From: Escherichia coli
GTDB lineage: Bacteria; Pseudomonadota; Gammaproteobacteria; Enterobacterales; Enterobacteriaceae
Strand: one strand, 5' to 3'
DNA: 64,000 nt
Assembly: GCF_017348835.2 (NCBI RefSeq)
Contig: NZ_CP071375.1
The number at the start of each line of letters is the position of its first letter. The first letter of the stretch is position 1. Shown here piece by piece: positions 2,264 through 64,000 of the stretch. Under the pieces are notes generated by a model. That model was not told the DNA's origin, did no database searches, and saw only the letters and a program-made list of their open reading frames with translations. The position numbers and the translations under genes were made by a program.

Positions 2264-3154
2264 TTACCACACAGCAGCCAGCAGCGTATGCGAGTCCGGC
2301 ACCATAAAATCAACGGACATCATCACCGAGAGGGCAGTGATGGCGATGATAGAGAAGCCGAACAGCTTGCGCGCCCAGATTCTGTCATCAGCAACTTTAT
2401 AACCGCGCAGGGCCATACCTAACCACCAGACGCTCACCGCCGCGGCGACCACCAGATATTTATATCCAGCGTAACCGCCAAGAGAGAGCATCAGCGTGGC
2501 AACGGCAAAGGCGATGATATACAGCGTGATGTGATTCTTCGCCACCGAAATGCCTTTTACCACTGGCAATACCGGAATGTTTGCCGCCTGGTAATCCTTA
2601 AAGCGGAAAATGGCGATGGCATAGGAGTGAGGCATCTGCCACAGGCTGAAGATAGCCAGCAGGATCGCTGCGCCGCTATCGAACTCGCCGGTTACTGCAC
2701 AGTAGCCAATCACCGGCGGCGCAGCGCCGGAGAGCGAACCAATCAATGTGCCGTAGACCGAGTGGCGTTTCATGTACAGGCTATAAACGCCGACATAAAC
2801 CACAAAGCCCATCACCCCCAGCCAGCAGGCCAGCGGATTCGCGCCAAACCACAGCAGCATAAAGCCAGCAATACCCAGCAAGGTGGCGTACACCAGCGAG
2901 ACAGCAGGAGAGATCAGGCCTTTAACCAGCACCCGATTCTTCGTCCTTTCCATCTTTCTGTCGATATCCCTGTCGATGTAGTTGTTAAACACACAACCCG
3001 ACGCCACAACCAGTGACACCCCAACCAGCGTGTAGATAAACAGGGGATAATCAATGCTGCCCTTTGAGGCCAGCAGGAATCCCCCAATCACCGAGATCAG
3101 GTTGCCAAAGATGATGCCTGGTTTCGTTACTTGCAGGTATTGCTTAAACATCAT
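2264..3154 (-). CDS. cyoE: Heme O synthase (protoheme IX farnesyltransferase) CyoE, 296 aa
   Basis: ORF-track 2264..3199 minus; start at [19 protein letters not shown] to match known protein. Confidence 0.92.
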
Positions 3155-61959: not shown

Positions 61960-62454
<495 letters not shown>

Positions 62455-62525
62455 TTAAACAAAAAAACGAAGCAAGCATACGCCTGATGGCGGTCCAAAA
62501 AAAAGAGTCATCTTGCCTAAGAGTA

Positions 62526-62558
62526 TTGGCAGGATGGTGAGATTGAGCGACAATCGAG
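62526..62558 (+). promoter_or_regulatory. Putative sigma-70 promoter of chiX: -35 TTGGCA, 17-bp spacer, -10 GACAAT
   Basis: Hexamers read directly upstream of the ChiX 5' end; transcription start site not verified. Confidence 0.45.
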
Positions 62559-62560
62559 TT

Positions 62561-62644
62561 ACACCGTCGCTTAAAGTGACGGCATAATAATAAAAAAATG
62601 AAATTCCTCTTTGACGGGCCAATAGCGATATTGGCCATTTTTTT
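62561..62644 (+). ncRNA. chiX: ChiX (MicM/SroB) Hfq-dependent small RNA, about 84 nt, with terminator hairpin GGCCAATAGCGATATTGGCC plus U7
   Basis: Sequence ACACCGTCGCTTAAAGTGACGGCATAATAATAAAAAAATGAAATTCCTCTTTGACGGGCCAATAGCGATATTGGCCATTTTTTT matches remembered ChiX including seed CUCUUUGACGGG; coordinates frame-checked. Confidence 0.9.
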
Positions 62645-63437
62645 AGCGCAACATTTGCGGTAAATTCCCTTCTCCATACAGGTGTAGTGCACCGACCGCG
62701 ACCACATATCGCCCCGGCGGCATGGCGCGTAATTTATCCCGCCAGGCGAGATTTCGCTGATGCATCAGCACATCGTACAGCGACTGACTGAACGTATTGG
62801 GCAGCGTTATTTCATTATTTTGCGGCGGCGCATTCAGCCACCAGCTCATCATTTGTTGCAGCAACCGTGCGTTGGTATGCCAGTGGGTCAGCGTATCGTC
62901 CAGCAGTGCCAGTCCTTTGTCAGGGAGCTGGAGCAACATGGTAATCTGGTTTTCAGCCCCTTCCAGTTCAATCACGGGTTTATGTTGTTGCTTCGCCGCC
63001 TGCAATAACTGGTAATCGATACCGTATTCTGCCCGCAGCCCCAGTTTTTGTGCCTGCGTCGCCTGAAGAACCATCGCGATTTGCCACAGCGGTTGGGTAG
63101 AAAAGAGTGACGGAGAAATGCCCATCACCTGGCTAATGTGCTGCAGATTTTGTAATTGCTCCTCGCTAATGCGCTCTTCCAGCGCCTCACAGGCAGGCAA
63201 ATTAGCAAAAGGCGTATCGCTGGTGGAAACATCCGCCTCGACGATCAGCGCATCGGCGTTTTTGAGCTTTTTGAGCAAACGGGTGGGCAGGGGAGCCATA
63301 TCGTGGCTACCCATATGAATACTGCCGAGCAGATGAAAATGGCGATTGCCGGGGAGGGTGATATCAATGGCAGGCCAGGTGTAATGATTACCGCGCAGCG
63401 CGGCCCAAAGCGTTTTTACCCGGTACAACAGATCCAT
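62643..63437 (-). CDS. ybaP: TraB/GumN (Tiki-like) family protein YbaP, 264 aa; function unknown
   Basis: ORF-track full length; GxxH-type motif HLLGSIHMGSHDM typical of the family. Confidence 0.9.
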   Translation of the reverse strand: MDLLYRVKTLWAALRGNHYTWPAIDITLPGNRHFHLLGSIHMGSHDMAPLPTRLLKKLKNADALIVEADVSTSDTPFANLPACEALEERISEEQLQNLQHISQVMGISPSLFSTQPLWQIAMVLQATQAQKLGLRAEYGIDYQLLQAAKQQHKPVIELEGAENQITMLLQLPDKGLALLDDTLTHWHTNARLLQQMMSWWLNAPPQNNEITLPNTFSQSLYDVLMHQRNLAWRDKLRAMPPGRYVVAVGALHLYGEGNLPQMLR

Positions 63438-63574
63438 ACGACCTCCCTTTGTGAAATATCATGCTAGCGCGCGGGGAGGGATGGCGCAAATGGAGTTGGG
63501 GACTTGTTTAATGTGTTTGTATGATTCAGTATGTTCTTGTATCGCTATTCACAGGGAAGCAACAGTTAAAAACT

Positions 63575-63916
63575 ATGAAACAGGCAACAAGAAAACCGAC
63601 GACACCCGGAGATATTCTTCTCTATGAATATCTGGAACCGCTCGCTTTGAAAATCAATGAGTTAGCAGAGTTGCTGCATGTTCATCGTAATAGCGTCAGT
63701 ACACTGATCAATAATAATCGTAAACTCACCACTGAGATGGCATTCCGTCTGGCGAAAGTTTTTGATACCACAGTCGATTTTTGGCTAAACCTCCAGGCGG
63801 CAGTTGATCTTTGGGAAGTTGAAAACAACATGCGCACCCAGGAAGAATTGGGACGGATTGAAACAGTGGCTGAATATTTGGCACGCCGTGAAGAGCGTGC
63901 AAAAAAGGTCGCGTAA
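63575..63916 (+). CDS. ybaQ: XRE/HigA-like helix-turn-helix protein YbaQ, 113 aa (in-frame upstream ATG at 63521 would give 131 aa)
   Basis: ORF-track 63521..63916; start at MKQATRKPTTPGDILLYEYLEPLALKINELAELLHVHRNSVSTLINNNRKLTTEMAFRLAKVF (HTH). Confidence 0.85.
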   Translation: MKQATRKPTTPGDILLYEYLEPLALKINELAELLHVHRNSVSTLINNNRKLTTEMAFRLAKVFDTTVDFWLNLQAAVDLWEVENNMRTQEELGRIETVAEYLARREERAKKVA

Positions 63917-63934
63917 GGCCAAAACATCGCTTCA

Positions 63935-64000
63935 TCTCGTAGGCCGGATAAGGCGTTCACGCCGCATCCGGCATCCGAGTACCATTGCCTGATGCGACGC
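63935..64000. repeat. REP elements after ybaQ (second unit truncated by window end)
   Basis: GTAGGCCGGATAAGGCGTTCACGCCGCATCCGGCA and partial GCCTGATGCGACGC. Confidence 0.75.

Follow-up and report, generated by a model that had tools for sequence, protein, structure and literature searches.

The ybaP–ybaQ locus

The window (the whole stretch of Escherichia coli DNA that was analysed, 64,000 nucleotides long) is 100% identical to strain PE164, in which the same two genes are annotated by RefSeq. The gene ybaP (62643..63437, minus strand) encodes a 264-residue TraB/GumN/Tiki-family protein, and the divergent ybaQ (63575..63916, plus strand) encodes a 113-residue HigA-family helix-turn-helix (HTH) antitoxin/repressor, here without a toxin; the spacer between them (63438-63574) measures 137 nt. 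The open reading frames lie exactly where the initial annotation had placed them, in the divergent layout it described. It had also stated that no HigB-like reading frame fits upstream of ybaQ, which is correct: the cognate toxin gene is 303 nt long, and the spacer is thus too small to hold it. HigB-like sequence was found neither in the spacer nor in the whole 64-kb window, in which the best tblastn match (E 0.62) lies away from the locus.

An ATG at 63521, which would extend ybaQ to a 131-residue frame, was rejected as the true start. It lies within a 70-nt segment specific to one state of the locus (discussed below), homologues all begin with MKQ, MNQ, or MAQ, and both RefSeq and PDB entry 2EBY use the 113-residue form. 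To call both genes poorly characterised is right for ybaP but only partly so for ybaQ: its protein has been crystallised and its structure solved (2EBY), the ClpXP degron is defined, ChIP-exo data exist, and the absence of the toxin has a published explanation.

YbaQ as a HigA-type antitoxin

YbaQ matches the NCBIfam model TIGR02607 (antidote_HigA) at 103.8 bits, against a cut-off of 47.7, and HTH_3 at E 1.8e-9, with the domain covering residues 16–70 (63620-63784); its relatives in the PDB are HigA/VapI antitoxins. These matches and the lack of any HigB match uphold the description of YbaQ as a HigA-type HTH protein that has no toxin partner in this strain. The E. coli YbaQ whose structure is given in PDB 2EBY is identical to the window protein at 111 of 113 residues. 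The window allele carries D24A and A43T, the latter in the putative recognition helix at a position that is otherwise invariant in the homologue alignment. K-12 YbaQ is identical to the toxin-linked protein of B2 strains, and the window and B2 alleles differ at 5 of 342 nt.

The C-terminal tail RREERAKKVA (codons at 63884..63913, plus strand) is a ClpXP recognition tag, as identified by alignment and from a report in which the tag of YbaQ is used as a ClpXP/ClpAP degron, with Flynn et al. 2003 as its source (PMC2907309). All intact YbaQ homologues keep a small or hydrophobic two-residue end (VA, AA, or IA). On toxin neutralisation, Rousset et al. (bioRxiv 10.1101/2020.05.25.114553) report that ybaQ is essential only if the strain carries an intact higB-1; they also report that higB-1 is derepressed when ybaQ is knocked down. 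The remaining hallmarks of a HigBA module are an operon in which the toxin gene directly precedes the antitoxin gene, an arrangement missing from the window and found at the orthologous site in other E. coli genomes, and a palindromic operator over the operon promoter, which the window spacer lacks. The window ybaQ is a HigA family member by descent, and the module is incomplete here.

YbaP and its upstream region

YbaP matches Pfam PF01963 (TraB_PrgY_gumN) over residues 30–264 (E 4.7e-43; 148.4 bits, cut-off 26.8). Its GxxH signature reads G38-S-I-H41, with G38 and H41 at least 90% conserved among 77 diverse homologues (25%–47% identity); in the same set, G255 reaches that level too, and no variation is seen at E67, E159, R228, G249, or H252. 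The C-terminal GxxHxxG motif of the family, including G249-x-x-H252, is likewise present. YbaP belongs by fold to the TraB/PrgY/GumN/Tiki family, and its earlier assignment as a TraB/GumN/Tiki-like protein with a GxxH signature stands on both the domain match and the conservation of the motifs. Relatives in this superfamily include the TIKI1/2 Wnt proteases, Enterococcus PrgY/TraB, and TRABD and, more distantly, ChaN, EreA, and RRSP; compared with its characterised members, YbaP has appeared only as a hit in screens, for example, for blue-light hypersensitivity (PMC10782963). By analogy with TIKI, it may be a hydrolase, perhaps a metal-dependent protease. The consensus of many homologues includes an N-terminal hydrophobic leader, which YbaP, judged by eye, appears to lack.

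The ybaP gene is a core member of the enterobacterial copA-ybaP-ybaK backbone. Its 5′ leader and promoter-like block, delimited by conservation, occupy 63438..63498 (minus strand) and comprise TTGCGC (63489..63484), a 17-nt spacer, and TAGCAT (63466..63461), followed by the ribosome-binding site GGGAGG. This segment is 100% identical in the window, in the higB-1-bearing strain SF-088, and in MLI106K1, which lacks ybaQ; in PCN033, also without ybaQ, it is identical save for a 7-nt duplication. The arrangement TTGCRC-N17-TAGCAT is kept in ybaQ-less Citrobacter, Kluyvera, Klebsiella indica, [Enterobacter] lignolyticus, and Pseudocitrobacter. Scans of the window and B2 spacers for the sigma-70 consensus and for terminators gave no match, with both the ybaP block and the higB promoter scoring below the threshold of the sigma-70 scan. 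Conservation suggests that the block may serve as ybaP's own promoter, and it is immediately upstream of this block that the higBA/ybaQ insertion starts.

Three states of the locus in E. coli

Across 5426 complete E. coli genomes, higB-1 lies between ybaP and ybaQ in 1266 (as in SF-088, where ybaP is divergent from higB-1 and ybaQ), whilst ybaQ is absent from about 594. The window-type state, with ybaQ and no higB-1, is marked by a 70-nt segment that is present once in each of 3566 genomes, K-12 included. This segment (63499..63568, plus strand) was delimited by comparison of junctions, is found only in genomes that have ybaQ and lack higB-1, and stands in place of 404 nt of B2-type strains, namely, the operator/promoter, higB-1, and the intercistronic spacer. 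Any promoter from which ybaQ is now transcribed must lie within it. A 12-nt direct repeat (63511-63522 and 63531-63542) is present and, in the few ybaQ-bearing sequences without higB-1 that were compared, the segment is more variable than the adjacent ybaP promoter block.

Global and local alignments of the 70 nt to the B2 sequence, as well as alignments to a concatenated form representing precise higB deletion, were no better than those of shuffled sequences, and an apparent match to the 5′ coding region of higB was discarded as no better than chance. A simple deletion from the B2 sequence does not account for the 70 nt; nor was a source copy found elsewhere in any of the 5426 E. coli genomes or in the loci fetched for comparison. 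The exchange of 404 nt for an unrelated 70 nt hints at an unusual event in the loss of the toxin. B2/F strains may instead have reacquired the whole module, a reverse order of events that is formally still allowed.

Two ybaQ-less strains show further junctions. In PCN033, the first 25 nt of the 70-nt segment are joined to the last 21 nt of ybaQ, and the insert of MLI106K1 has no significant similarity to the 70 nt. The MLI106K1 insert does contain a 15-nt match to the 3′ part of higB-1, equalled in 3 of 300 shuffles, which is suggestive only.

The operator of the HigB/HigA module

Each of the 14 toxin-linked loci, those of D6-like phage-plasmids included, carries the operator of this family, a double palindrome of 25 bp that reads GCAC-N4-GCAC-N-GTGC-N4-GTGC; its core, TGCACTTGCGCACAGTGC, is common to the phage-plasmid modules and the chromosomal higB-1 promoter. 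A position weight matrix built from toxin-linked operators only scores real operators at 49–60 bits, against −1.5 bits for the best site in the window spacer (rank 6 of 127,910). The spacer, 63438-63574, has no inverted repeat, only the direct repeat, and the stretch 63495-63540 is at most an eroded operator relic. The palindromic YbaQ operator that the initial annotation proposed to seek here is thus absent by both measures.

Some observations nevertheless favour local control of ybaP by YbaQ, beginning with the divergent genes and the short spacer. Gao et al. 2018 (PMC6237786) give ChIP-exo peaks and a palindromic motif for YbaQ in K-12, and the protein genuinely binds DNA. In B2 strains, the higB-1 operator is only about 30 nt upstream of the −35-like hexamer of ybaP, so cross-talk would be geometrically possible there. 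YbaQ may yet bind near ybaP in K-12, and the in silico analysis would allow it a different, weaker way of binding at the 12-nt direct repeats. Against this, the expression changes that followed CRISPRi of ybaQ in K-12 were only 'limited or broad', and no effect on ybaP is reported.

Distribution of the two genes

A regulatory pair had been expected to show conserved co-occurrence, which is lacking in either direction. Ten YbaQ homologues outside the Escherichia ybaP site (among them those of Trabulsiella, Enterobacter, E. albertii, Kluyvera, Sodalis, and Brenneria) all have HigB-homologous sequence directly upstream, with one of the ten upstream sequences frameshifted and one possibly truncated at the N terminus; neither ybaP nor copA lies within 3 kb of any of the homologues. 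Conversely, the order copA-ybaP-ybaK without ybaQ was found at all six ybaP orthologue loci from other Enterobacteriaceae, which represent five named genera and one Citrobacter-like metagenome contig. Kluyvera sichuanensis carries the module at one place (L016) and a module-free copA-ybaP-ybaK at another (L020). In Salmonella, ybaP occurs without ybaQ, and scwA occupies the same spot (PMC7933661). Two closer YbaP relatives, traced in order to date the insertion, led to the Citrobacter-like contig and an E. coli variant rather than to E. albertii or E. fergusonii.

The module is mobile, with homologues on phage-plasmids of about 90 kb and on phage D6; the antitoxins of these elements are 77%–81% identical to YbaQ, and the HigB of D6-like phage-plasmids is a 79% identical toxin. 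In Escherichia sp. E1V33, ybaQ is frameshifted.

Origin of the gene pair

The most credible reading, in which we have high confidence, is that ybaP and ybaQ are adjacent through an accident of insertion and do not form a regulatory pair, with ybaQ being the antitoxin left behind after loss of its toxin. The ancestral enterobacterial order would have been copA-ybaP-ybaK on one strand, with a short promoter region proper to ybaP lying just behind the terminator of copA. A mobile type II toxin-antitoxin module would then have inserted between copA and ybaP in the Escherichia lineage, at the upstream edge of the ybaP promoter block, with its toxin gene first: higB-1, encoding a PF05015 RelE-like toxin and presumed mRNase, followed by ybaQ, encoding the HigA antitoxin. 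Within the complete module, dimeric YbaQ, an XRE-type HTH protein, would repress the higB-1 promoter through the 25-bp double palindrome, which overlaps the −35 hexamer and the promoter spacer. YbaQ would also neutralise HigB-1, and its C-terminal ClpXP tag would render it labile, as is usual for antitoxins.

The window strain, like roughly two in three complete E. coli genomes (K-12 among them), would then have lost the toxin gene together with its operator-bearing promoter, and some strains would subsequently have lost ybaQ as well. As the solitary ybaQ has no cognate operator in front of it, YbaQ is probably neither auto-repressing nor acting on ybaP in the window strain, and it presumably leaves the window spacer unbound.

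Fate of the solitary antitoxin

It is possible, though doubtful, that the solitary ybaQ is a functionless remnant decaying towards loss. Such decay would fit the disappearance of toxin and operator, the independent losses of the gene together with the E1V33 frameshift, the greater variability of the 70-nt segment in the few sequences compared, and the A43T change of the window allele. Free decay would not, however, be expected to leave only 5 of 342 nt different between window and B2 alleles or the K-12 and B2 proteins identical, although the elapsed time may be short. The 2003 study of Flynn and colleagues, from which the tag of YbaQ comes, was reportedly a ClpXP substrate-trapping study, so YbaQ would be made in vivo, which also speaks against decay.

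Less probable is that the gene is kept because it is useful. YbaQ would then either provide anti-addiction or immunity when HigB/HigA modules arrive on D6-like phage-plasmids and other mobile elements, by cross-repressing their conserved operator or cross-neutralising their toxin, or be a domesticated regulator with new chromosomal targets. A residual function is hinted at by the survival of an intact ybaQ in 3566 of 5426 genomes; its unchanged K-12 protein, the closeness of the phage-plasmid antitoxins and their shared operator core TGCACTTGCGCACAGTGC, and the K-12 ChIP-exo peaks (PMC6237786) point the same way, and other functions were also suggested by Rousset et al. (bioRxiv 10.1101/2020.05.25.114553). 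Usefulness is, however, at odds with a gene that is not essential, has been lost from about 594 genomes, is frameshifted in E1V33, and in the window bears A43T at an otherwise invariant putative recognition-helix position. A specific form of this idea, somewhat less likely again, is that toxin-less ybaQ is retained as an anti-addiction/immunity gene, with YbaQ binding the operator of the HigB/HigA modules of D6-like, P1-type phage-plasmids and perhaps neutralising their toxin; if so, each route would weaken post-segregational killing or change how the phage-plasmids establish themselves in most E. coli.

That YbaQ is a local regulator of ybaP acting through an operator in the shared 137-nt spacer, as the divergent layout had been taken to suggest, is highly improbable, given a spacer with no operator-like site or inverted repeat, two genes that do not co-occur, and a ybaP promoter block that persists unchanged in ybaQ-less genomes. 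Nothing in the in silico comparison indicates control of ybaP by YbaQ.

Relation to known systems and implications

The window represents the state that Rousset et al. (2020/2021) describe as 'higB-1 lost' in K-12 and the majority of phylogroups; their higB-1/ybaQ locus of phylogroups B2 and F occupies the same site between ybaP and copA and encodes the same antitoxin. Compared with that locus, the window lacks higB-1 and the 25-bp operator, its ybaQ is non-essential, and its YbaQ bears D24A and A43T. Canonical HigBA systems (Proteus vulgaris Rts1 HigBA; E. coli K-12 HigBA/YgjNM; PDB 4MCX, 6CHV, and 2ICP) are toxin-first, as is the higB-1/ybaQ module, and the two have in common a PF05015 RelE-fold toxin, an HTH_3/TIGR02607 antitoxin, and autorepression via palindromes that overlap the promoter. 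YbaQ differs from them in its low identity (E 1e-6 to 1e-9 to PDB chains of 4MCX, 6CHV, and 2ICP), a longer C-terminal tail that ends in the ClpXP tag, and an operator sequence of its own, and the window keeps the antitoxin only. Orphan antitoxins and anti-addiction modules, such as the chromosomal ccd of Erwinia chrysanthemi (reviewed in PMC7354431), resemble ybaQ in being chromosomal antitoxins without a linked toxin and in that complete homologous modules circulate on plasmids and phage-plasmids; by analogy with them, YbaQ might cross-neutralise or cross-repress such modules.

The orphan-antitoxin account of ybaQ is already published (RASTA 2007, PMC2374986; Rousset et al. 2020/21; PDB 2EBY), as is the main point for E. 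coli, that ybaQ is essential only where higB-1 survives. The present additions are modest: the exact junctions, the counts of the three states (1266, 3566, and about 594 of 5426 genomes), a consensus for the operator of this HigBA subfamily, an operator that higB-less strains lack, the conserved promoter block of ybaP, and the finding that D6-like phage-plasmids carry the module. Their importance reaches little beyond annotation hygiene. YbaP is a conserved Tiki/TraB-like protein on whose role this locus gives no handle, and a divergent HTH gene beside an uncharacterised one should not be read as a sign of regulation where that HTH gene has been left over from a mobile toxin-antitoxin module.

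Three states of the ybaP–copA site in E. coli

In the window, ybaQ is the antitoxin gene of a HigB/HigA module from which the toxin is missing. A search of 5426 complete E. coli genomes with window positions 63300–63700, together with two follow-up searches, separates the locus into three states that total 5426: ybaP divergent from higB-1 plus ybaQ (1266 genomes); ybaP divergent from ybaQ with the toxin absent, as in the window (3566 genomes, tallied by a diagnostic 70-nt segment at 63499–63568); and ybaQ absent (about 594 genomes). The additional gene of the first state, for example in strain SF-088, encodes a 100-aa RelE/ParE toxin that matches PF05015 (HigB-like_toxin) at 110 bits.

This situation is already published: essentiality of ybaQ is confined to B2/F strains with higB-1 upstream, higB-1 is derepressed upon ybaQ knock-down in strain S88, K-12 and most phylogroups do not carry higB-1, and phylogroup D has neither gene (Rousset et al., bioRxiv 10.1101/2020.05.25.114553). 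The missing toxin is explained by that account, which the present comparisons reproduce and refine.

Gene identities at the window end

The window end corresponds to the ushA–ybaK–ybaP–ybaQ–(copA) region of E. coli; positions 62400–64000 are 100% identical to E. coli PE164 and have matches in nearly every complete E. coli genome. The ORF list reproduces both genes as initially annotated: ybaP at 62643–63437 on the minus strand (264 aa; RefSeq 'TraB/GumN family protein') and ybaQ at 63575–63916 on the plus strand (113 aa; RefSeq 'HigA family addiction module antitoxin'), with a 137-nt spacer between them. The family assignments are likewise upheld, with YbaP matching Pfam PF01963 TraB_PrgY_gumN (E 4.7e-43) and YbaQ matching Pfam HTH_3 and NCBIfam TIGR02607 antidote_HigA (103.8 bits; cut-off 47.7); YbaQ does stand without a toxin partner, a search of all 64 kb of the window, spacer included, having found no HigB-like sequence. 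An in-frame upstream ATG creates a 131-aa ORF (63521–63916, plus strand) that is reported by some gene callers, as in the 131-aa product of one comparison locus (L028); this upstream start is not conserved and its use as the real ybaQ start is improbable.

Two further elements flank the pair. The sRNA sroB (ChiX/MicM) lies between ybaK and ybaP at 62561–62644 on the plus strand (Rfam RF00368, scoring 82.1 bits where the gathering score is 44) and is convergent with ybaP, its 3′ end sharing 2 nt with the ybaP stop codon. Downstream of ybaQ, a REP-type repeat occupies 63942–64000 on both strands (Rfam naRNA4 at 50.7 bits, short of the 59.5 gathering score, the window end truncating the repeat), and it explains the dozens of additional BLAST hits in each genome.

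At E ≤ 0.001, an exhaustive profile search detects 4335 relatives of YbaP. Among 77 aligned homologues (25%–47% identity), no variation occurs at E67, E159, W200, R228, G249, and H252, and conservation is 90% or more at G38, H41, N229, and G255. These positions make up the GxxH and GxxHxxG motifs, plus acidic and arginine residues, typical of the Tiki/TraB family, and the GxxH signature ascribed to YbaP is thereby borne out. A sequence search of the PDB returned no relatives, and the literature hits for YbaP were screen entries only, such as blue-light hypersensitivity (PMC10782963).

Probable loss of the toxin gene

The 61 nt beside the ybaP start codon (63438–63498) are identical in the window and the B2 strain, and identity resumes at 63569 (AAAACTATG...) and runs into ybaQ. 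Between these junctions the window has 70 nt, whereas the B2 strain has 404 nt comprising the operator/promoter, higB-1, and the intercistronic spacer. Flank divergence is ordinary for E. coli (5/342 nt in ybaQ, 26/795 nt in ybaP). No alignment of the 70 nt to the B2 404 nt scores above shuffled sequence, whether long gaps are allowed or the higB coding sequence is assumed to have been excised precisely; moreover, the segment occurs once per genome in 3566 genomes, and no source copy was found elsewhere in E. coli genomes or in any fetched locus. Together, the lack of alignment and of a source copy argues that higB-1 was lost through replacement or very fast local divergence, and not through a clean deletion.

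In strain PCN033 (L003 3138–3330), the 70-nt segment breaks off after 25 nt and runs directly into the final 21 nt of ybaQ, which indicates that ybaQ in this lineage was lost from a window-like state. In MLI106K1, the ybaP–copA gap is 428 nt and about 360 nt of GC-rich sequence stands in place of ybaQ (L004 3199–3560); this insert yields only a weak TwoAYGGAY RNA match (27.5 bits versus 43) and a 15-nt stretch with 14/15 matches to the 3′ part of higB-1, a score reached by 3/300 shuffles. At the ybaP site of Escherichia sp. E1V33 (L009 3001–3323), ybaQ is frameshifted after codon 93, and an intact higB–ybaQ homologue lies elsewhere in that genome (L010).

Operator and promoter sequences in the spacer

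All toxin-linked loci, whether from E. coli of the B2 and F types, from ten other species, or from two phage-plasmids, have a common sequence 35–60 nt upstream of higB, (A)TGCACTTGCGCACAGTGCAT..GTGCG.TA..AT. This is a double palindrome, GCAC-N4-GCAC-N-GTGC-N4-GTGC, which overlaps a TTGCGC −35-like hexamer and is followed 17 nt on by a TAnnAT −10-like hexamer. A weight matrix was built from 11 of these sites; their own scores of 49–60 bits are circular, since they are the training set. Within the window spacer the highest score, −1.5 bits, falls at 63495–63540. This site ranks 6th of 127,910 positions over the whole window and has all four GCAC/GTGC half-sites changed (GGAC, TAAT, GTGT, TATG); it may be an eroded operator relic at the expected position. 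A repeat finder detected no inverted repeat in the spacer, and thus the palindromic YbaQ operator anticipated there was not recovered. The only repeat is a 12-nt direct one (ATGTGTTTGTAT / ATGTTCTTGTAT, 20 nt apart), possibly by chance.

The ybaP side of the spacer carries a promoter-like block on the minus strand: TTGCGC (63489..63484), a 17-nt spacer, TAGCAT (63466..63461), followed by a leader containing GGGAGG. These 61 nt do not vary among the E. coli states compared, save for a 7-nt duplication (CGCAAAT) adjoining the −35-like hexamer in PCN033. A TTGCRC-N17-TAGCAT block also precedes ybaP in 5/5 other genera, there directly behind the copA terminator hairpin, and the higBA/ybaQ insertion starts immediately upstream of it. 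It appears, then, that ybaP has its own control region; we infer the promoter function from conservation, as the block falls under the threshold of a consensus promoter scanner.

Co-occurrence of ybaP and ybaQ across genomes

Scanning one genome per species (GTDB) for YbaQ homologues gave 13 loci. The three at the Escherichia ybaP–copA site have YbaP or CopA within 3 kb and no HigB-1 homologue upstream; the other ten (Trabulsiella, two Enterobacter, E. albertii, the second locus of Escherichia sp. E1V33, Escherichia sp. ESNIH1, two Kluyvera, Sodalis, and Brenneria) all have a HigB-1 homologue upstream (58%–79% identical) and neither YbaP nor CopA within 3 kb. Among these ten, higB is frameshifted in Enterobacter sp. 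Bisph1 (L011 2653–2939) and perhaps N-terminally truncated in one other, for which the start estimate may be off.

From the YbaP side, copA, ybaP, and ybaK lie on the same strand in five genera (Citrobacter freundii, Kluyvera sichuanensis, Klebsiella indica, [Enterobacter] lignolyticus, and Pseudocitrobacter corydidari), with a copA–ybaP gap of only 88–153 nt and no HTH gene within it; a Citrobacter-like metagenome contig has the same arrangement. K. sichuanensis carries its higB–ybaQ homologue away from ybaP (L016), and in Salmonella enterica the unrelated gene scwA occupies the copA–ybaP spot, where S. bongori has nothing (PMC7933661). Thus, the copA–ybaP spacer is an insertion hot spot and ybaQ a passenger in it. 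Neither conserved co-occurrence of ybaP and ybaQ nor an operator-like palindrome in the spacer was found, the two outcomes that the initial annotation named as refuting, and its suggestion that YbaQ may regulate ybaP is unsupported.

YbaQ and the mobility of its module

YbaQ of K-12 (crystal structure, PDB 2EBY) does not differ in sequence from its toxin-linked B2 counterpart. The window protein differs by D24A (codon 24, 63644–63646) and A43T (codon 43, 63701–63703), an allele present also in Escherichia sp. MOD1-EC7003; position 43, within the putative recognition helix (HVHRNSVS-A-LINNNRK), is occupied by alanine in 17/17 other homologues compared. In every intact YbaQ homologue the last two residues are small/hydrophobic (VA, AA, or IA). 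The YbaQ tail has been employed as a degron for ClpXP/ClpAP (PMC2907309, citing Flynn et al. 2003), which is compatible with YbaQ being a labile antitoxin. For K-12 YbaQ, Gao et al. 2018 (PMC6237786) describe ChIP-exo peaks and a palindromic motif; in a 2025 CRISPRi single-cell screen, responses for ybaQ were no more than 'limited or broad'.

Short tandem repeats accompany some modules: about four copies of GCACTTAC just upstream of the operator and about seven of GACCCGTA in the higB–higA spacer of Brenneria sp. 4F2 (L015, about 2500–3000), and ATGACCA four times at the higB start in E. albertii (L017, about 2600–2630). These could produce variable expression.

Escherichia phage D6 and non-mobilisable plasmids of about 90 kb from E. 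coli and Salmonella encode antitoxins 77%–81% identical to YbaQ; these lie among phage tail genes, each behind a RelE/ParE toxin gene and the operator described above. The presence of YbaQ-like modules on these elements supports a mobile origin of the higB–ybaQ module, and the chromosomal orphan ybaQ might serve an anti-addiction function.
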